UHGV virus genome: UHGV-1346634
Length of the DNA: 12,591 bases
Reading direction: 5' to 3' (one strand)
From: a virus
The position numbers were made by a program, and so were the translations under genes. Of the stretch, positions 2,123-12,416 are shown piece by piece. Under the pieces are notes generated by a model. That model searched no databases and was not told where the DNA came from. It saw only the letters and a list, made by a program, of their open reading frames with translations. The stretch's first letter is position 1. Every line of letters begins with the position of its first letter.

Positions 2123-4102
2123 ATGACATTTAAACACTACGATGTGGTCAGGGCGGCGTCGCCGTCAGACCTTGCGGAGCGACTGACTCAAAAACTGAAG
2201 GAGGGGTGGCAGCCATTTGGCAGTCCTGTCGCCATCACGCCTTATACCCTGATGCAGGCCATTGCGGCGGAAGGTGATGTCACCACACCTGTGGTGGTGA
2301 AGCCGTCGGATGGAGAAGGCACAGTTATCAGCACCACCAGCGAACCGGAGTATTACTTTGTTGTTGTTCTGGCGGGGCAGTCAAACTCAATGTCTTTTGG
2401 TGAAGGGCTGCCGCTGCCGGAGACATATGACCGTCCGGACCCGCGTATTAAACAGCTGGCGCGTCGCAGTACGGTGACGCCGGGTGGTGCCGCCTGTAAA
2501 TATAACGACATCATTCCGGCAGACCACTGTCTGCATGATGTGCAGGATATGAGTAACCTGAATCATCCTCATGCAGACCTGAGTAAGGGACAGTACGGTT
2601 GTGTGGGGCATGCTCTGCATGTTGCCAAAAAGCTGCTGCCGTTTATGCCTGCGAATGCGGGTATCCTTCTTGTTCCATGTGGCCGTGGCGATTCGGGATT
2701 TACTGCGGGGGCCGAGGGGGCGTTTAACGAAGCGTCGGGAGCGACCGCAGGCTCGTCCCTGTGGGGGGCGGATAAACCGCTGTATCATGACCTGGTCAGC
2801 AGAACCCGTGCGGCCCTGAAGAAAAATCCGAAGAACGTGCTGTTATCAGTGATCTGGATGCAGGGAGAAAAAGATGTCAGTTCGGGGAGACATGCAGAAC
2901 ACAATGCGCTTTTCCTTGCCATGGTAAATCAGTTCCGTACGGAACTGGCAGATGTGGCAGAGCAGTGTACTGGCGGGACAACGGCCAGCGTCCCGTGGAT
3001 TTGCGGTGATACCACGTACTACTGGAAGGAAAGGTATGCAGCGCCGTATGAGGCGGTTTACGGTGGGTATAAAGGAAAAGCTGCGCAGAATATTCACTTT
3101 GTGCCGTTGATGACGGATGAGCATGGTGTGAATGTGCCGACAAACGAGCCGTCAGAAGATCCGGACATTATCCCGGCGGGATACTATGGCGCTGCGTCAC
3201 GCACTGCCAGTAACTGGACGGCAGCCGATCGTAAAACGCACTTCAGTTCATGGGCGCGAAGAGGCCTTGTTTCAGACCGCCTGGCAGGTGCCATTTTGCA
3301 GTACGCCGGGCGGACATTATCGTTCCTTACCGGGCAGAGCGCACCGCAGTCGGGTGGTACAACGCCTGTCAGTCCGGGGACACCGGATGTTGAGAAACCG
3401 CAGGATGGCGGTGTTGCTGGTACTGGTCATGATGAGGCCGTGAGCAGTACCAGGACGGTGGCTGAATATGATGCGAACAGTGGAAATGGTGCATTGACAG
3501 AGCAGCAGTGGGGCGCTTCCGGCGGCAAAGGCACTGTGACTGATGACGGTGGACGGAAAGCGCTGCGACTGGAAAAACAGCCCGGTAAACTGACGTCCTG
3601 GAAAATGTTCCGTACTATTGCAGTGGAGGAGGCAAAAAATCTTCTCAGCAAGGGGGGGGAAATTGCCGTACGGTTCAAAATTCCGGATGGAAGCGAGCTG
3701 GTGAACGGACAGTTTGTCTTTGGTATCTACTGGCCGGTGTCGCAGTGGGCGTCAGGCGCGACAGCAAACAGTATGCTGGCATCATTCTTCCTTCAGACGG
3801 ATACATCAAATCTTAATCTGATGCACCAGAAGGGCTCCTCGAATGCACAACTGGGTACATTTGGTACGTTTGACCATAACTGGCATACGGTTGTTTTCCG
3901 CTTTGCGGGAAATAACAGCGAAAGAGTTGTTCCGGTGATTGATGGTGCAGAGCAGACGGCATTTGACCTTGTGATGTGGACAAATGATGGCTTTACAGCA
4001 GATACGCTGACGCTGACAGATATCACGGGGGCAAAAGCGACGTATCCGGTACTGCTTGATACGGTCACAGTCAAAGTTAACGAAAGCCGGGCATCATCAT
4101 AA
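2123..4102 (+). CDS. nanS-p: Prophage sialate 9-O-acetylesterase (NanS-p type)
   Basis: 659-aa ORF with RBS GGGAGG 4 nt before the ATG. SGNH-esterase motif LAGQSN (in VVVLAGQSNSM) and a DUF1737-like N-terminus. Size and position match the large esterase ORF downstream of stx in 933W-type phages (from memory). Confidence 0.8.
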   Translation: MTFKHYDVVRAASPSDLAERLTQKLKEGWQPFGSPVAITPYTLMQAIAAEGDVTTPVVVKPSDGEGTVISTTSEPEYYFVVVLAGQSNSMSFGEGLPLPETYDRPDPRIKQLARRSTVTPGGAACKYNDIIPADHCLHDVQDMSNLNHPHADLSKGQYGCVGHALHVAKKLLPFMPANAGILLVPCGRGDSGFTAGAEGAFNEASGATAGSSLWGADKPLYHDLVSRTRAALKKNPKNVLLSVIWMQGEKDVSSGRHAEHNALFLAMVNQFRTELADVAEQCTGGTTASVPWICGDTTYYWKERYAAPYEAVYGGYKGKAAQNIHFVPLMTDEHGVNVPTNEPSEDPDIIPAGYYGAASRTASNWTAADRKTHFSSWARRGLVSDRLAGAILQYAGRTLSFLTGQSAPQSGGTTPVSPGTPDVEKPQDGGVAGTGHDEAVSSTRTVAEYDANSGNGALTEQQWGASGGKGTVTDDGGRKALRLEKQPGKLTSWKMFRTIAVEEAKNLLSKGGEIAVRFKIPDGSELVNGQFVFGIYWPVSQWASGATANSMLASFFLQTDTSNLNLMHQKGSSNAQLGTFGTFDHNWHTVVFRFAGNNSERVVPVIDGAEQTAFDLVMWTNDGFTADTLTLTDITGAKATYPVLLDTVTVKVNESRASS

Positions 4103-4806: not shown

Positions 4807-5022
4807 ATGTACCAGATGGAAAAAATCACAACAGGTGTGTCATACACCACGTCAGCGGTGGGAACGGGCTACTGGTTCCTGCAGTTGCTGGACAGGGTTT
4901 CCCCGTCTCAGTGGGCGGCAATAGGCGTGCTGGGGAGTCTGCTGTTTGGTCTGCTGACGTACCTGACGAACCTGTATTTCAAAATTAAAGAAGACCGGCG
5001 TAAGGCGGCCCGGGGAGAGTAA
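4807..5022 (+). CDS. S: Class II holin (pinholin, S21-like) with dual start
   Basis: 71 aa; near-identical in pattern to phage 21 S ([23 protein letters not shown]...[21 protein letters not shown], from memory). Two in-frame starts at M1 (4807) and M4 (4816), the usual antiholin/holin arrangement. A SAR endolysin follows. Confidence 0.9.
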
Positions 5023-5026
5023 AGCG

Positions 5027-6013
5027 ATGAATAAAAAATATGAACTGGTTGTAAAAGGGATAAATCATTACCCGGATAAGATAACTGTTACTGTGGCACT
5101 GGTAATTGCCGGGCAGCCGTCGTTGTTGTCGCCATATGTGGCGATTAGTCTTGACCGTACTGAAGGTGCCACGCTGGAGTTTTACGAAGCTGAGGCGAAA
5201 AAACAGGCGAAGCAGTTTTTCATGGATGCGGCTCTCGGATTACGCGAAGGGACTGCGCGATATGGCTTTCAGAATATTTCTTCATGGACAATGCCGGAAA
5301 AAATCGCCACTTACCCGGGGCGTGAAAAGGTCAACGAACCGGTAAAAAATGCGCCTGATGATGTGCAGAGCGCGATGGTTAATGTGGAGCTTCCGGCACG
5401 TGTGACACCAGGAGTGAAAGTCGGGGAAGATTCTCGTCTTGTGCTGACCAAAAGAATAGGCAGCGTGGTCAGTGTTCATATTGATCATGAGGAAGTTCTG
5501 TCGGTTATGTACAGGGAAGACTACGATCCGAAAACAACATTCAGCGACTATGAAGCGAGAGCAAAGGAGTATGCCTTGTCGGTATTTGCTGCGGTACGTG
5601 GCGAGGACTGTCGTAAAAACGGGCATGAAAGTGATTTTACTGTGCCTGTGTCGGACAAAAACCAGGAACGGGAGTGTAACCGGCCATCCTTTGTTGTATC
5701 CGGTGATGACGGGAAAATCACCATATCAGAAAATGGAAAAGTAACACCGCCATCGCACCAGCACTGTGAGATGCTCATTGAATTTGCCATTGATTACCTG
5801 AAGAACAATAAAAAACAGGGGCTGATGAAGCGTATTGGTCGTTGCATGGGATATCTGCAGGTAGCTGCTGAGATTGAAGCGCTGGCCAGTGGTGCTGAAA
5901 AGGATGCAGTTGTGCGGGAGACCGTTCTTCGTGATTTCAATACTCCACCCTTTAAGACTGAGCCTGATAACTGGATCCAGCCGGGGCTGACTTATCTTAA
6001 AGTGCGTATTTAG
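5027..6013 (+). CDS. Hypothetical 328-aa protein inserted between holin and endolysin; function unknown
   Basis: Long uninterrupted ORF. ATG is 4 nt after the holin stop, with GGGGAGAG 9 nt upstream, so it is translationally embedded in the late lysis operon. No signal peptide, transmembrane segment or motif that I recognise. P21 and 933W-type cassettes, as I recall them, have S followed directly by R. Confidence 0.6.
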   Translation: MNKKYELVVKGINHYPDKITVTVALVIAGQPSLLSPYVAISLDRTEGATLEFYEAEAKKQAKQFFMDAALGLREGTARYGFQNISSWTMPEKIATYPGREKVNEPVKNAPDDVQSAMVNVELPARVTPGVKVGEDSRLVLTKRIGSVVSVHIDHEEVLSVMYREDYDPKTTFSDYEARAKEYALSVFAAVRGEDCRKNGHESDFTVPVSDKNQERECNRPSFVVSGDDGKITISENGKVTPPSHQHCEMLIEFAIDYLKNNKKQGLMKRIGRCMGYLQVAAEIEALASGAEKDAVVRETVLRDFNTPPFKTEPDNWIQPGLTYLKVRI

Positions 6014-6049: not shown

Positions 6050-6583
6050 ATGAACGCAAAAATCAAATACGGCCTGTCAGCTGCTGTTCTGGCGCTGATT
6101 GCCGCAGGGGCTTCTGCGCCTGAAATCCTCGACCAGTTTCTGGATGAAAAAGAAGGTAACCACACCACGGCATACCGTGATGGTGCGGGTATCTGGACCA
6201 TCTGCCGTGGAGCCACCCGGGTGGATGGTAAGCCTGTGATTCCTGGCATGAAGCTGTCGAAGGAAAAATGCGACCGGGTTAACGCTATCGAACGGGATAA
6301 GGCGCTGGCATGGGTGGCGAAAAACATCAGAGTGCCACTGACCGAACCTCAGAAAGCGGGTATTGCGTCATTCTGCCCGTATAACATTGGCCCCGGTAAG
6401 TGTTTCCCGTCGACGTTTTATAAACGAATTAATGCAGGCGATCGCAGAGGAGCGTGTGAAGCGATTCGCTGGTGGATTAAGGACGGTGGCAGAGACTGCC
6501 GTATCCGCTCAAATAATTGTTACGGTCAGGTATCCCGGCGTGATCAGGAGAGTGCGCTGGCATGCTGGGGTATCGACAGGTAG
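6050..6583 (+). CDS. R: SAR endolysin (phage lysozyme, P21 R-type)
   Basis: 177 aa. N-terminal Gly/Ala-rich weakly hydrophobic signal-anchor-release segment GLSAAVLALIAAGASA. Catalytic E-x8-D-x5-T triad within EGNHTTAYRDGAGIWT. Matches the P21 R lysozyme pattern. Confidence 0.85.
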   Translation: MNAKIKYGLSAAVLALIAAGASAPEILDQFLDEKEGNHTTAYRDGAGIWTICRGATRVDGKPVIPGMKLSKEKCDRVNAIERDKALAWVAKNIRVPLTEPQKAGIASFCPYNIGPGKCFPSTFYKRINAGDRRGACEAIRWWIKDGGRDCRIRSNNCYGQVSRRDQESALACWGIDR

Positions 6584-6691
6584 CAGAATATTTTGCTGAA
6601 AAATGATGTTGGTCAACGCGGGCAGATAACACGAAATCCTGCGAACTGGCAAAATGTAAGTGAATAAAGTCAGGATCATTGTTTCACGCAG

Positions 6692-6720
6692 AGGCACCGT
6701 AATGGTGCCTTTGTCATTTA
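6692..6720 (+). terminator. Weak terminator-like hairpin after the endolysin
   Basis: Stem AGGCACC / GGTGCCT with loop GTAAT, followed by an interrupted T-rich run TTGTCATTT. Confidence 0.3.
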
Positions 6721-6855
6721 TGCGCTTCGCACAAGCGTAAATAAACCAAAGAACCTTTCAGGATGAGCCCTGGTGGATAACCGGCAGTGGTCTGGTTAAC
6801 CCTCTTTGGGCTGGTTATTCCTGTGCGCAGGGTTCATCACTAAAAGGAATCAACC

Positions 6856-7551
6856 ATGAAAGAGATGATTTCTGTCGATCATGAAATATCCATGAGTAGT
6901 CTGGATTTTCTGAATAACATTATTAACCCCATCCGGGTTGAGGCAGGGAAACCACCTCATGAACCGCGTAAGTTCCTTGCAAAAATTGAGGACGAACTTG
7001 AGCTTGAGGTAACCTGGAAAAAATTCCGGTTAAACAATAACCAGACAAGAACGGCATACTATGATCTGGATTTTGACCAGATGATGCTCGTTGGCATGAG
7101 AGAGTCAAAGGCCGTTCGTCGTTCTGTGCTGGCAAGGCTCAAAGCGATGCATGGTATTCAGATCCCCCAGACTTTACCTGAGGCGTTGCGATTTGCGGCA
7201 AAACTGGCAGAACAGAAAGCAGTGCTGGAAAATCAACTGGCAATAGCAGCGCCGAAGGCTGAATTTGTTGATAACTATGTTGAAGCATCTGGTCTGATGG
7301 GATTCCGGGAAGTTGCTAAGTTACTCGGTATCAAAGAAACCGATTTCCGGCTGTTTTTGTTGGAGAACGGAATAATGTATCGCCTCGCTGGAAAAATGAC
7401 GCCTTACTCGCATCACCTGGATGTGGGGCGGTTTAGCGTGAAAACGGGCGAGGCGGGCAATGGTCATGCTTTTACGCAGGTTAAATTCACCCCAAAAGGT
7501 GTTCAGTGGATTGCTGGTCTGCTTGCTGCATGGAGAGCTACCGCAGCATGA
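6856..7551 (+). CDS. ant: Phage antirepressor (KilAC-domain, Ant-like)
   Basis: 231 aa with RBS AAGGAA 6 nt before the ATG. C-terminal half has the KilAC/ANT-type pattern. An ant-like gene between R and Rz is a feature of 933W-type phages (from memory). Confidence 0.7.
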   Translation: MKEMISVDHEISMSSLDFLNNIINPIRVEAGKPPHEPRKFLAKIEDELELEVTWKKFRLNNNQTRTAYYDLDFDQMMLVGMRESKAVRRSVLARLKAMHGIQIPQTLPEALRFAAKLAEQKAVLENQLAIAAPKAEFVDNYVEASGLMGFREVAKLLGIKETDFRLFLLENGIMYRLAGKMTPYSHHLDVGRFSVKTGEAGNGHAFTQVKFTPKGVQWIAGLLAAWRATAA

Positions 7552-7643
7552 AGATGATAAAAATGGACTGGAAATTTTTGCTGGTCTGGCTGATTCCGTT
7601 TTTATGGGTGGTTGCCCGGTTAATTACTGCTATTAAGGGGTAA
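7548..7643 (+). CDS. Possible 31-aa hydrophobic peptide ([31 protein letters not shown])
   Basis: ATG overlaps the ant stop codon (ATGA). Single hydrophobic helix. Below the 60-aa cut-off of the ORF track. The region is T-rich, which inflates apparent hydrophobicity. Confidence 0.25.
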
Positions 7644-7645
7644 AG

Positions 7646-7777
7646 ATGTCAGACAAACTCATAATGCTGGCGAAGGGCCTTTGTGTAATCGTCGGTATTT
7701 CATTTTCACTAATGCTGGTTGTTCTTTTTCTTTCCATAACCTGGATGGCGTTGACTTCGGCAGGGGTGGTGGGGTGA
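7646..7777 (+). CDS. Possible 43-aa hydrophobic peptide ([43 protein letters not shown])
   Basis: Starts 2 nt after the previous small ORF; its stop TGA (7775-7777) overlaps the likely GTG start of Rz at 7774 (GTGA). Confidence 0.25.
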
Positions 7778-8247
7778 GTATAAACCGAATGCTTTCCGCG
7801 TTTACCGTTATTCTGCTGGTGGTCTGTGGTGCGCTTAGTCTGGGGCTGAATCATTACCGCGATAACGCCATCACCTACAAAGCGCAGCGAGATAAAAAAG
7901 CCAGAGAGCTGGAGCTGGCAAACGCAACCATTACTGATATGCAGGTGCGCCAGCGCGATGTTGCTGCGCTCGATGCAAAATACTCGAGGGAATTAGCCGA
8001 TGCGAGAGCTGAAAATGAAACTCTTCGCGCTGACGTTGCCGCTGGTCGTAAGCGCCTGCGGCTCAACGCCACCTGCCCCGGTACCGTGCGTGAAGCCACC
8101 GGCACCTCCGGCGTGGATAATGCAACCGGCCCCCGACTGGCAGACACCGCTGAACGGGATTATTTCATCCTCAGAGAACGGTTGATGACAATGCAGAAGC
8201 AGCTGGAAGGGGCGCAGGAATATATCCGCACTCAGTGTATTAACTAG
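7774..8247 (+). CDS. Rz: Rz i-spanin
   Basis: Strong match to lambda Rz from memory ([62 protein letters not shown]). The track ORF from 7681 begins with TTG and over-extends; the likely start is GTG 7774 ([10 protein letters not shown]...) or ATG 7789. Confidence 0.85.
8000..8185 (+). CDS. Rz1: Rz1 o-spanin lipoprotein, embedded in the +1 frame of Rz
   Basis: 61 aa. Lipobox LVVSAC and the proline-rich motif [27 protein letters not shown], matching lambda Rz1 from memory. Fully nested inside Rz. Confidence 0.85.
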
Positions 8248-8270
8248 TATTTTTGTTATCCGGAGAATGC

Positions 8271-8495
8271 ATGAAGAAATTACTGGTAACCGTAAAGCCT
8301 TTTCAGGGAACAATTCCGTTCCGTATTTTGCAGCGTGGTCGTGTTCTTGTTGAAGGTTCGTTCAGTGGTAAATGTACGCAATTACACTCCCGGACCTTTC
8401 AGGTGAATGCCACGAATGAAGAGCTAACCGTTGAGTGTACGATGAATGCCGCTAAATGCCGCATGGTATCCGCTGCATTACAGCCAGTGTGTTGA
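8271..8495 (+). CDS. Hypothetical 74-aa protein with four Cys
   Basis: ATG at 8271 preceded by GGAGA. The track ORF from 8253 begins with TTG. No recognisable family. Confidence 0.45.
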   Translation: MKKLLVTVKPFQGTIPFRILQRGRVLVEGSFSGKCTQLHSRTFQVNATNEELTVECTMNAAKCRMVSAALQPVC

Positions 8496-10194: not shown

Positions 10195-10758
10195 GTGCTG
10201 ACAACGCAAAAACGAAAATTTGCGCTGGCGCTCATGTCCGGGAAAAACAAAACAGCGTCAGCCATTGCGGCAGGTTATTCGGCGAAGACGGCCAGAGTTA
10301 AAGGCTCGCAACTGGCAAAAGATCCGGAAGTGCTCGCGTTTATAGCCCGTAAGCAGTGCGAGACGGTAGAGGTGGATGAGGTTCCTGTTTACCGGCAGAA
10401 AAAATCAGAGCAGGAGGATAAACCCCGTCGCCGTGAGGCGGCTGCAATACCACAGCCGGACGAAACAAATCCGGAGATGCCACCGCCCGTGGTGATATCT
10501 CCTGGTATTGAGTATATGGAGGACGGTCTTCCCGATCCTGTGAAAGCGATGGGGCGTCTTCTGGTGGAGAACATTAATACCGACCCCAGGCTGGCGCTGG
10601 ATGCGGCTTATAAGCTGGCGCAGTTCACGCACCACAAAAAAGGGGATGCCGGTAAAAAATCGGCAAAAGGTGACGCGGCGAAAAAAGCGGCTAACCGTTT
10701 TGCGGTGCCACCACCACCCCGCCTGGTGGTGAATAATGATAATGAGGGCAACGGATGA
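10195..10758 (+). CDS. Terminase small subunit (P27-family type)
   Basis: 187 aa, GTG start after GGGAGGAGG. N-terminal pattern KRKFALALMSGKNKTASAIAAGYSAKTARVKGSQL is typical of this TerS family. Stop overlaps the TerL start (ATGA). Confidence 0.75.
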   Translation: MLTTQKRKFALALMSGKNKTASAIAAGYSAKTARVKGSQLAKDPEVLAFIARKQCETVEVDEVPVYRQKKSEQEDKPRRREAAAIPQPDETNPEMPPPVVISPGIEYMEDGLPDPVKAMGRLLVENINTDPRLALDAAYKLAQFTHHKKGDAGKKSAKGDAAKKAANRFAVPPPPRLVVNNDNEGNG

Positions 10759-12416
10759 TACCAGTGTGGAGCACGGCCTGCCCGGACTGGGCAGAGCGTC
10801 TGAAAAAGGGGCTGTCGATTATTCCGTCTCCGATTTACCCGGAGCAGGCCGCACATGCCCTGGCGATTTTTAAACAACTGCGGATTGTGGATGCACCGGG
10901 CAGCCCGACGTTCGGGGAGTCCTGTGCACCGTGGGTGTTTGACCTGGTGGCGGCCCTGTTTGGCTCCTACGATGCGCAGACCGGTGTACGCCATATCAAG
11001 GAAGTTTTTATCCTTATCCCCAAGAAAAACTCGAAGTCCACGCTGGCCGCGGGGATCATGATGACGGCGCTGTTACTGAACTGGCGGCAGGCGGCGGGCT
11101 ACACCATTCTGGCCCCGACCGTGGAGGTGGCGGCTAACGCCTTCAACCCTGCCAGGGATATGGTACGACGGGACGATGATCTGGATGACCTCTGTCAGGT
11201 GCAGACACATATCCGGACCATCACCCATCGGGTGACGGACACCACCCTTAAGGTGGTGGCTGCCGATCCGAATACGGTGTCCGGTATCAAGTCCGTGGGG
11301 ACGCTGATTGATGAACTGTGGTTATTTGGCAAGCAGTACAAAGCGGAGGACATGTTACGTGAAGCCATAGGCGGCCTTGCCTCCCGCCCGGAAGGGTTTG
11401 TGGTGTATACGACCACCCAGTCGAATGAACCGCCCGCCGGGGTGTTCAGACAGAAACTGCAGTACGCCCGGGATGTGCGCGACGGCAAAATTCATGATCC
11501 GCACTTTCTGCCGGTGATATTTGAACACCCTCCTGAAATGGTGGAAAGCGGGGCTCACCTGCTGATGGAAAACCTCGCCATGGTCAATCCGAATCTCGGT
11601 TATTCGGTGGATGAGGCTTTTCTGTACCGGGAGTACCGTAAAGCCCGGGAGGCTGGTGAGGAAGCATTTCGTGGCTTCATGTCAAAACACGCCAATGTGG
11701 AAATCGGTCTTGCCCTGCGTTCTGACCGCTGGGCGGGCGCGGATTTCTGGGAGCAGCAGGGCAGGCGCGTCAGCCTGGACGATATCCTGCAGCGCGCTGA
11801 TGTGGTGACGGTGGGGATTGACGGCGGGGGCCTGGATGATCTGCTGGGAATGTACGTGATTGGCCGTGACAGGGAAACCCGCGAATGGCTGGGCTGGGGC
11901 CATGCCTGGGCGCATGAAACCGCGGTGGTCAGACGGAAGAGTGAGGCATCCCGGTTTCAGGATTTTGTGGCCTGTGGAGACATGACGATTGTCCGTCGGG
12001 TCGGGGATGACACGGCGGAAGTGGCGGAGTATGTGCGTCGTATCCATGAGGCTGAGTTACTGGATCATATCGGTATTGACCCGTCAGGTGTGGGGCAGAT
12101 TCTGGATTCACTGGCAGAAGCCGGGATCCCCGACGGAATTGTTGTGGGGATAAGCCAGGGCTGGAAGCTGGGCGGGGCCATCAAAACCACCGAGCGCAAA
12201 CTGGCTGAGGGAGTGCTGGTGCATGGTGGTCAGCCACTGATGGCCTGGTGCGTTGGCAATGCCCGGGTGGAGCCTAAAGGTAACGCCATCCTTATTACCA
12301 AACAGGCCAGCGGACGGGGGAAAATTGACCCGCTGATGGCGCTGTTCAATGCGGTATCCCTGATGTCCCTGAATCCGGAGCCCAAAAAGAAAGAATATGC
12401 GGTTTATTTCATATAA
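10755..12416 (+). CDS. Terminase large subunit
   Basis: 553 aa, translationally coupled to TerS. Walker A-like region ILIPKKNSKST and overall composition typical of HK97-type large terminases. Confidence 0.8.
   Translation: MIPVWSTACPDWAERLKKGLSIIPSPIYPEQAAHALAIFKQLRIVDAPGSPTFGESCAPWVFDLVAALFGSYDAQTGVRHIKEVFILIPKKNSKSTLAAGIMMTALLLNWRQAAGYTILAPTVEVAANAFNPARDMVRRDDDLDDLCQVQTHIRTITHRVTDTTLKVVAADPNTVSGIKSVGTLIDELWLFGKQYKAEDMLREAIGGLASRPEGFVVYTTTQSNEPPAGVFRQKLQYARDVRDGKIHDPHFLPVIFEHPPEMVESGAHLLMENLAMVNPNLGYSVDEAFLYREYRKAREAGEEAFRGFMSKHANVEIGLALRSDRWAGADFWEQQGRRVSLDDILQRADVVTVGIDGGGLDDLLGMYVIGRDRETREWLGWGHAWAHETAVVRRKSEASRFQDFVACGDMTIVRRVGDDTAEVAEYVRRIHEAELLDHIGIDPSGVGQILDSLAEAGIPDGIVVGISQGWKLGGAIKTTERKLAEGVLVHGGQPLMAWCVGNARVEPKGNAILITKQASGRGKIDPLMALFNAVSLMSLNPEPKKKEYAVYFI

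Follow-up and report, generated by a model that had tools for sequence, protein, structure and literature searches.

A conserved single-helix membrane gene and a truncated hybrid mini-gene between ant and Rz in a Shiga toxin-phage-like Escherichia coli prophage

We analyzed two very small, co-directional open reading frames (ORFs), here called ORF1 and ORF2, that lie between the endolysin gene R and the spanin genes Rz/Rz1 in UHGV virus genome UHGV-1346634, a 12,591-nt stretch of DNA that we refer to as the window. The window covers the late region of a lambdoid, Shiga toxin (Stx)-phage-like Escherichia coli prophage, and its nearest records are Stx1a-converting phages and Escherichia phages Lys8385Vzw and PhiR5_1, at approximately 95–96% identity. 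On the plus strand, which carries all features given below unless stated otherwise, ant (6856–7551), encoding a KilAC-domain antirepressor-like protein of 231 amino acids (aa) (Pfam PF03374, E-value 1e-27), ends in a TGA at 7549–7551 that is overlapped by the ATG of ORF1 at 7548–7550 (ATGA). ORF1 (31 aa, 7548–7643) is followed by a 2-nt spacer, AG (7644–7645), and then by ORF2 (43 aa, 7646–7777), the TGA of which (7775–7777) overlaps a GTG at 7774–7776 in the frame of the i-spanin gene Rz (Pfam PF03245, E-value 2e-49); Rz runs to 8247 from either this GTG or an ATG at 7789. Each ORF encodes one predicted membrane helix, with 19-residue hydrophobic windows scoring 2.26 (ORF1) and 2.77 (ORF2) on the Kyte-Doolittle scale. 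A preliminary description had read this chain and these helices from the sequence, and we found them as it described, except that the GTGA overlap with Rz is only a possible start, rather than an established one, because the RefSeq and GenBank annotators begin Rz at ATG 7789, which sits 11 nt past the ORF2 stop codon. The two frames had also been called invisible; they are indeed missing from an ORF list made with a 60-aa cut-off and present in one made at 20 aa, but RefSeq and several phage records include ORF2 as an annotated gene, and the record of phage PhiR5_1 has both ORFs.

The same description had warned that T-rich DNA produces hydrophobic-looking frames by chance, and this caution was borne out, as the stretch is 35% T and the ORFs by themselves are not beyond chance expectation. 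The probability of a frame staying open was 0.15 for 31 codons and 0.07 for 43 codons, and an ATG-initiated ORF of at least 43 aa appeared in 35% of shuffles of the 430-nt context. The ORFs rise above chance through preservation of the frame, a low ratio of non-synonymous to synonymous substitution rates (dN/dS), and the mosaic, modular nature of each. Both frames lie within genuine protein-coding sequence, and the start/stop chain is real and recurs in relatives.

ORF2 is a real, intact and conserved gene for a predicted single-helix inner-membrane protein. This membrane mini-protein matched family phrog_4906 over its full length (E-value 3.9e-23, residues 1–43 to profile positions 7–49 of 49), and it corresponds to RefSeq WP_001280923.1 and close relatives, a 132-nt coding sequence annotated as “hypothetical protein” in E. 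coli genomes; annotated copies are also found in phages P27 (gp79, YP_009908482.1), P13803 (ORF53), Stx1_14040, and PhiR5_1. A query comprising window positions 7500–7800, mostly its ORF2 part, was present in 915 of 5426 complete E. coli genomes by megablast and in 276 phage records by blastn, down to 75% identity. In a set of 94 ORF2 loci (14 annotated records and 80 IMG/VR contigs), which together contained 22 nucleotide haplotypes, the frame was open in every locus, with no indel and no internal stop codon. One locus, in Stx1a phage Stx1_14744 (L013, 2009–2230), was the only one of the 94 without the ORF2 stop codon (TGA to GGA), and there a 78-aa annotated ORF runs into Rz. Alignments showed that homology to the window ends within approximately 10 nt 5′ of the ORF2 ATG and at the ORF2 stop codon, and ORF2 was seen with at least four different left neighbors and at least four right neighbors. 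Homology breakpoints at the borders of ORF2 are thus the signature of a mosaic gene module.

Across genera, the dN/dS of ORF2 was 0.24–0.33, compared with 0.7–1.7 in the two other sense frames, and the frame was kept without indels at 65–75% nucleotide identity, with conservative substitutions (mean BLOSUM62 score +0.27). Residues D3, K4, V14, G17, and S19 through V25 were invariant in a 25-sequence alignment (A1), and 14 columns, including C13, G17, S19, and F20, were invariant in a cross-genus alignment (A6); this mid-helix invariance suggests a specific helix packing. Approximately 10 residues follow the helix. The other phrog_4906 members resemble ORF2 in having a core of the same length, an invariant GISFS-LMLV helix, and a slot between R (or ant) and Rz. 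On the minus strand, a 73-aa ORF (7633–7854) lies over ORF2, and this antisense frame was open across the ORF2 interval in 21 of the 21 haplotypes analyzed; it has no conserved start, ranges from 9 to 173 aa depending on context, and shows non-conservative substitutions (BLOSUM62 score −0.56), and we interpret it as a shadow that the sense frame would be expected to cast. Searches of Pfam, NCBIfam, PADLOC, and PDB sequences with ORF1, ORF2, the intact 44-aa form of ORF1 and the 933W-type form gave no match.

Published expression data exist for the ORF2 homolog of 933W-type phages, MMGWLMISDKLITLVKSLCVLVGISFLVMLVAIFFSTAWRVLTLSGLVG, which is XECs191 of an intergenic small-gene study in E. coli O157:H7 Sakai (PMC5597208). 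In LB, XECs191 showed 30.0 reads per kilobase per million mapped reads (RPKM) of RNA and 12.6 RPKM by ribosome profiling (Ribo-seq), with a ribosome coverage value of 0.43 and an ORF coverage of 0.55, and the authors classed it as “real” and predicted an inner-membrane location (PMC5597208). Its protein, EDL933_1392, has otherwise served only as a length-matched annotated control (PMC4765031). The 933W-type gene differs from that of the window in that the codon corresponding to the window's ATG is ATA, and the start lies 4–6 codons further upstream, where it overlaps a different ant of 189 aa.

ORF1, in turn, is a truncated hybrid of a second mini-gene, left by the insertion of an ant cassette: it consists of MKMIKM joined to the 25 C-terminal codons (the transmembrane segment plus KG) of a gene of family phrog_6632. 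Profile searches found the family behind it, of 44–45 aa, in E. coli, Salmonella, Providencia, Cronobacter, Citrobacter, and Klebsiella, with more members in Brenneria, Pantoea, Symbiopectobacterium, and Dryocola. It is a small family (33 representatives at 50% identity among 1.84 billion proteins) with the consensus M(I/V)DFSKLIRELRxM..LPNWKFLL(V/I)W.IPFLWVVSQLI.AIKG, in which the N-terminal D-x-SKLIRELR is invariant, and its members share an initiation region with a conserved GGGAG-type Shine-Dalgarno element 5–7 nt before a GTG, ATG, or TTG start. Its dN/dS of 0.18, against 0.83 and 2.34 in the other frames, marks the family as clearly coding, judged from substitution patterns. Approximately 40 nt 5′ of the start, in L095, L096, and L098–L102, we observed a hairpin end, the sequence TTTCTA(C/T)TTCT(A/G)CACCT(T)GA..., and then GGGAGAAC. 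This leader is conserved in Citrobacter, Providencia, Brenneria, Pantoea, and Symbiopectobacterium, which suggests a mobile unit that includes a regulatory element.

Only codons 7–31 of ORF1 are held in common with this family. Its match to the phrog_6632 profile was accordingly partial (E-value 2.3e-4, residues 7–30 to positions 20–43 of 45), whereas the intact E. coli form matched positions 1–43 with an E-value of 1.4e-13. Over residues 7–31 (WKFLLVW.IPFLWVV..LI.AIKG), ORF1 was 76–92% identical to family members such as P0077, which occupy the same slot after the endolysin, and comparison of these codons with those of L097, an enterobacterial locus, gave 10 synonymous and 3 non-synonymous differences (dN/dS 0.05). 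Pairwise blastn of the window against the ant-less prophage L014 delimited an 898-nt ant cassette (6669–7566) that replaces 127 nt of L014, with homology over 6584–6668 and then again from 7567, placing the right junction of the cassette inside ORF1, after codon 6. The 127 nt replaced comprise a terminator-like hairpin with a 15-bp stem, a Shine-Dalgarno element, a TTG start, and codons 1–19 of the mini-gene, while the end of the cassette supplies an in-frame ATG-AAG-ATG-ATA-AAA-ATG. In contrast to its relatives, ORF1 thus lacks residues 1–19 of the family, including the conserved segment M(I/V)DFSKLIRELR, as well as the native Shine-Dalgarno element, the native start and the upstream hairpin, and has in their place MKMIKM coupled to ant. 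When we sought the ant 3′ end in other contexts as the origin of this start, it was found only in the ant-ORF1 arrangement.

By tblastn, the ORF1 frame and its ATG were intact in 23 of 23 ant-type loci, with five amino acid variants, and an ATG-initiated short form of the intact gene (MISQLPN..., “membrane protein” P0072) has the same length of 31 aa. ORF1 itself is without RefSeq annotation. When the E. coli hits were sampled at even spacing, approximately 25% were the ant hybrid, 55% were the intact 44-aa gene, and 10% carried a nonsense allele. The preliminary description had named frames broken by indels or stops in close relatives as the outcome that would speak against it; because of this nonsense allele, which occurs in one E. 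coli lineage, that is partly what we found for ORF1, but not for its family. Profile comparison found no homology between ORF1 and ORF2 or between ORF2 and phrog_1115-type ORFs, and only a weak, local similarity between ORF1 and the 60-aa phrog_1115 family (hhalign probability 33%, 16 columns).

The two mini-genes occur as a pair in three lineages: ant-type E. coli, ant-less E. coli, and L097, where they stand behind an unrelated M15 endolysin. The spacer between them is always 2 nt, although its sequence and the stop codon vary (TAA-AG-ATG, TAG-CT-ATG, and TAA-GT-ATG). A Shine-Dalgarno-like element for ORF2, AAGGGG (7635–7640), is formed by the last two sense codons of ORF1 (K-G), 5 nt 5′ of the ORF2 ATG, and the same AAGGGG-stop-NN-ATG geometry is found in L014, L004, and L097. 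Likewise, the G-rich 3′ end of ORF2, AGGGGTGGTGGGGTGA (7762–7777), is a possible Shine-Dalgarno element for Rz, positioned 7 nt before GTG 7774 and 11 nt before ATG 7789; 933W has the same GGTGGGGTGA 7 nt before its Rz ATG. The ends of three distinct tiny ORFs lie against the start of an i-spanin gene, namely ORF2 in 933W (TGA, 7 nt, ATG), a 28-aa ORF in L005 (TGA, 1 nt, ATG), and a phrog_6632 member in Citrobacter L098, which forms an ATGA overlap with a phrog_1026 Rz-like spanin. We detected no plus-strand promoter-like or terminator-like site in the R-Rz interval of the window and no Rfam match in 6400–8400, although the promoter and Rfam scans are insensitive to new RNAs. Given this lack of internal sites together with the recurrence of the chain, translational linkage from ant through ORF1 and ORF2 to Rz is a reasonable inference from the sequence.

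The Rz start ATG of 933W-type phages (L009, 2148–2150) is ATA in the window (7780–7782), and the Rz start has therefore moved, to either GTG 7774 or ATG 7789. A start at GTG 7774 would have AGGGG 7 nt upstream and would keep Asn-Arg aligned with the 933W-type MNRV... start, while a start at ATG 7789 would leave Rz without a basic residue before its membrane helix; GTG 7774 thus appears to be a serious alternative to the annotated start.

With regard to genomic context, ORF2 was located downstream of the endolysin region, and what lay between the two was usually a single small ORF, an ant gene or a short gap without annotation. This slot is kept in Escherichia, Citrobacter, and Cronobacter, as seen in the annotations of RefSeq and phage records and in contigs from the latter two genera. 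The branch of the ORF1 family ending in IKG directly follows the endolysin. Wherever we found ORF2 or this branch, in four or five genera, it stood downstream of an endolysin, with Escherichia, Citrobacter, Cronobacter, and Providencia as hosts. Four lysis-gene combinations accompany ORF2: a GH24 signal-anchor-release (SAR) lysozyme with a P21 pinholin, GH108 with holin_8/holin_3_7, M15_4 with holin_8/holin_3_7, and M15_4 with holin_3_1; by our reading of the sequences, the ORF1 family may also stand beside a GH19-like endolysin. In the window, the lysis cassette begins with S (4807–5022), encoding a 71-aa P21-type class II holin (pinholin; Pfam PF04971 Phage_holin_2_1, E-value 7e-33). R (6050–6583) encodes a 177-aa phage lysozyme (Pfam PF00959) with the N-terminus MNAKIKYGLSAAVLALIAAGASAPE; it is 95.5% identical in amino acid sequence to 933W R, which has been listed as a SAR endolysin construct (PMC9239132). 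The o-spanin lipoprotein gene Rz1 (8000–8185; Pfam PF06085, E-value 2e-21) is embedded within Rz, and a TonB-C-domain ORF follows 3′ of Rz/Rz1. From their position, and as in annotated relatives, we take the plus-strand ORFs at 10195–10758 and 10755–12416 to be the terminase subunits. Between holin and endolysin lies a 328-aa ORF (5027–6013) whose match to DUF1327 is limited to the first 75 residues, and related prophages have shorter DUF1327/YdfR-type genes at this place.

Further tiny single-helix ORFs, of 60, 38, and 28 aa (phrog_1115, 4493, and 3246), were observed in the R-Rz interval of other E. coli prophages (L005, 1675–1928; L014, 2166–2282; L006, 1309–1491; L001, 3981–4097). Like ORF1 and ORF2, these are single-helix ORFs chained to their neighbors, and they stand before or after ORF2; the R-Rz interval is a hotspot for membrane mini-genes. 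In Dryocola clanedunensis (L103, 3570–4093), a myovirus-like baseplate module contains a tandem run of four tiny hydrophobic ORFs that overlap in part; two have an RWW ending, one is phrog_1115-like and the last is related to ORF1. A 60-aa lipoprotein-like ORF (MKRKHW...LLVGC..., phrog_7528; 3640–3822) begins 4 nt after ORF2 in prophages of Citrobacter and Cronobacter (L104 and L106) and in L109, the prophage of an E. coli-labeled protein, and no spanin-family Pfam hit was listed for the called genes of these three lysis cassettes. The phrog_7528 ORF is cut to 36 aa in L097. In the Cronobacter loci L105–L108 (741–1859), a gene pair with Enterotoxin_a/Scabin-like and LT-IIB domains, of the AB5 heat-labile-enterotoxin type, lies directly 5′ of the holin genes and occupies the position that stx has in Stx phages.

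We think it reasonably probable that ORF1 and ORF2 are two co-directional mini-genes of the late/lysis transcript, situated between R and Rz/Rz1, with ORF2 intact and ORF1 truncated, whose products are non-essential inner-membrane accessories. Under this interpretation, insertion of the ant cassette would have removed the terminator hairpin, ribosome-binding site, start codon, and conserved cytoplasmic N-terminus of the first mini-gene, and would have joined its remaining helix, in frame, to a new start codon, an ATG that overlaps the stop of ant. Q-antiterminated late transcription would, we infer, yield a single message for S, R, ant, ORF1, ORF2, and Rz/Rz1; ribosomes finishing at the ant UGA could restart at the overlapping ORF1 AUG, initiation at ORF2 would be served by the AAGGGG of the last ORF1 codons, and initiation at Rz by the G-rich last codons of ORF2. 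The ORF2 protein would act in the inner membrane, most likely via helix-helix contacts, as its mid-helix G-I-S-F-S is invariant or nearly so, and would be a non-essential lysis accessory that affects timing or efficiency, possibly together with the coupled i-spanin. For the ORF1 allele of the window, translation is possible, but the product is probably defective or without activity. The role of small lysis regulator, which the preliminary description had proposed from the arrangement, appears plausible from sequence context. Genomic position is the only lead on function: the slot downstream of the endolysin, shared across four lysis-gene combinations, favors a role tied to the lysis step, while the variety of these combinations argues against a partner-specific antiholin or a SAR-specific “releasin.”

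Comparison with known lysis proteins placed ORF1 and ORF2 among small membrane proteins encoded in lysis cassettes, each with one hydrophobic helix and both between R and Rz. The antiholins lambda S107, phage 21 S71, and T4 RI are also small lysis-cassette membrane proteins, which tune timing via contacts with the holin; they are either isoforms of the holin or proteins with a periplasmic sensor domain, with specificity for a single holin in each case. ORF2, by contrast, adjoins at least three unrelated holin families and has no holin or antiholin profile match; for both ORFs, Pfam and NCBIfam gave no hit to holin or antiholin families, and the PHROG hits were only to families of “unknown function.” An i-spanin has an N-terminal transmembrane helix followed by a long periplasmic coiled coil that reaches to the o-spanin, whereas in ORF2 some 10 residues follow the helix, and ORF2 matched no spanin profile, unlike the neighboring Rz and the L098 spanins. 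We considered ORF2 as a minimal i-spanin for the 60-aa phrog_7528 lipoprotein-like ORF and rejected this, since it has almost no periplasmic part. A similar arrangement is that of P1 lydE, a small ORF that overlaps lydD in the operon of lyz, a SAR endolysin gene, and has been proposed to encode a possible anti-pinholin (PMC9025707); it is likewise tiny and overlap-chained behind a SAR endolysin, but no sequence relation was seen, although none was specifically sought. The phage Mu releasin gp25 (DUF2730) is, similarly, a membrane-tethered accessory that is neither holin nor spanin and is encoded a few genes 3′ of a SAR endolysin, and its 73-aa anionic cytoplasmic domain, within a protein of 99 aa, is needed for its action (PMC9239132). 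ORF1 and ORF2 differ from gp25 in having almost no extramembrane part and no Pfam DUF2730 match. Identity as a releasin was rejected on the grounds of size, the missing DUF2730 match, and the occurrence of ORF2 beside GH108 and M15 endolysins as well. Homology to the named small proteins of the ynf/ydf region of K-12 Qin was likewise rejected, as both ORFs are absent there.

Several observations weigh against our interpretation of the two mini-genes as lysis accessories. A genuine lysis-modulating role is argued only from position, and we put it at an even chance or somewhat below. Pooled over the E. coli haplotypes, the dN/dS of ORF2 was 0.52 (0.09 for R and 0.64 for Rz), indicating moderate selection. 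The antisense frame had a dN/dS of 0.31, about as low as the cross-genus values of ORF2, so that dN/dS alone does not fix the strand. The ORF1 polymorphisms in ant-type loci, four non-synonymous and one synonymous, gave no sign of constraint, and the nonsense allele of the ORF1-family gene (TTA to TAA at codon 38 of 44) left ORF2 intact in the loci checked. Polymorphism counts for ant and R from the same comparison were set aside, as offsets in the alignment made them unreliable. The Ribo-seq signal of XECs191 is low and comes from uninduced cultures, and a full-text literature search found no paper naming either protein among those it covered; a comparative paper on Stx phages is silent on both ORFs. 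In K-12 Qin, rrrQ overlaps rzpQ directly and neither ORF is present, which means that they are not needed for lysis as such. Lambda is not known to carry any gene between R and Rz. Beside ORF2 stand holins, endolysins, and spanins of unrelated families, and its partners would therefore have to differ from one phage to another. The interval after R is a landing site for unrelated cargo, including ant, a DNA methyltransferase gene (L007), and bor (933W), and the RWW-ending sister branch of phrog_6632 lies in tail/baseplate modules with adjacent terminator-like hairpins. Deletion of lydE from the cloned P1 operon, finally, left lysis unchanged (PMC9025707).

The points concerning cargo lead to a different explanation, in which both mini-proteins are “morons” that ride in the late operon and act on the host envelope, for example in superinfection exclusion or the modulation of host membrane proteins. 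Exclusion factors encoded by morons include small membrane proteins, HK97 gp15 among them. Relatives of ORF1 ending in RWW reside in tail/baseplate clusters of Citrobacter, Klebsiella, Pantoea, and Dryocola prophages and 3′ of an approximately 1300-aa ORF in Brenneria and Symbiopectobacterium; a terminator-like hairpin stands 5′ of them in the Citrobacter and Klebsiella loci, and also 3′ in the Citrobacter one (L095), and the full-length E. coli ORF1 has a terminator-like hairpin with a 15-bp stem on its 5′ side. That the R-Rz interval takes up unrelated genes (ant, a methyltransferase gene, phrog_1115 small ORFs) and that the adjoining lysis families vary are both in keeping with such cargo. 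However, a moron would be flanked by a promoter and a terminator of its own and be expressed from the prophage, whereas in the window neither ORF has a promoter-like site in front of it and no plus-strand terminator-like site lies between R and Rz; ORF2 and the IKG-ending branch keep to their place downstream of the endolysin in four or five genera, the start/stop chaining to the i-spanin recurs, and PADLOC returned no hits. We therefore regard the moron explanation as unlikely, and in our overall weighing we placed unrelated cargo in general in or slightly above the same range, still on the unlikely side.

The remaining explanations concern whether the frames act as genes at all. For the window's ORF1, we hold it to be an even question whether it is a non-functional remnant of the ant insertion, perhaps translated through the ATGA, which matters only as the carrier of the ORF2 ribosome-binding site. 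Its loss of the invariant IDFSKLIRELR segment, native Shine-Dalgarno element, and native start, the excess of non-synonymous over synonymous polymorphisms in ant-type loci, the independent nonsense allele that accounts for approximately 10% of the even E. coli sample with ORF2 intact, the silence of RefSeq, and the partial PHROG match all point that way, but the frame and ATG are intact in all 23 ant-type loci, the length equals that of the ATG-initiated short form of the intact gene, and the membrane helix, which could carry the activity, is complete. We consider this allele about as likely inert as active. That both frames are chance ORFs in a T-rich spacer, conserved only as RNA or as ribosome-binding sites, would fit the 35% T content, the frequency of ORFs of such length in local shuffles (35%), and the double use of the G-rich ends as Shine-Dalgarno elements. 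For ORF2 and the phrog_6632 family this is already contradicted, by an ORF2 frame free of indels at 65–75% nucleotide identity and of internal stops in 94 loci, by the bias of the sense frame toward synonymous and conservative amino acid changes, by mosaic breakpoints at the ORF2 borders and the presence of both families in several genera, and by the published Ribo-seq signal of the ORF2 homolog and the absence of an Rfam match; for the pair as a whole we give it next to no weight. Small size and hydrophobicity also bring to mind the Hok, Ldr, or TisB-type peptides, so that the products could be toxins of type I toxin-antitoxin systems, or else the true gene could be the opposite-strand ORF at 7633–7854, the frame of which was open in every ORF2 haplotype analyzed, with the low dN/dS noted above. 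We consider this very improbable too: scans that are insensitive to new RNAs found no promoter-like site, antisense RNA family, or terminator around the ORFs, which lie within an operon with start/stop coupling, and the antisense frame has no conserved start, undergoes non-conservative substitutions, and owes its low dN/dS to mirroring the sense frame.

Both frames are already in public catalogs, as hypothetical or membrane proteins. ORF1 provides an example of how the insertion of a cassette can remodel a neighboring mini-gene while keeping it translatable, and the final codons of such tiny ORFs have a second use as the ribosome-binding site of the gene that follows. Hundreds of Shiga-toxin-converting and related prophages carry ORF2 among their lysis genes; in these phages, toxin release depends on phage-mediated lysis, and a conserved, spanin-chained membrane protein in Stx phages is therefore a cheap and well-defined knockout target, the outcome of which could be either a new lysis accessory or a clean demonstration of cargo. 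A bolder view, which we consider improbable, is that ORF2, together with small partners such as the phrog_6632 protein, forms an extra, unrecognized component of Gram-negative phage lysis, made up of tiny inner-membrane helices produced in fixed proportion to the i-spanin. These helices would gate or aid the final stages of lysis, for example by keeping the spanin or the endolysin signal-anchor in check or by making the membrane more sensitive to holin triggering. If true, this component would contribute, in most Stx phages, to when phage and Shiga toxin are released.

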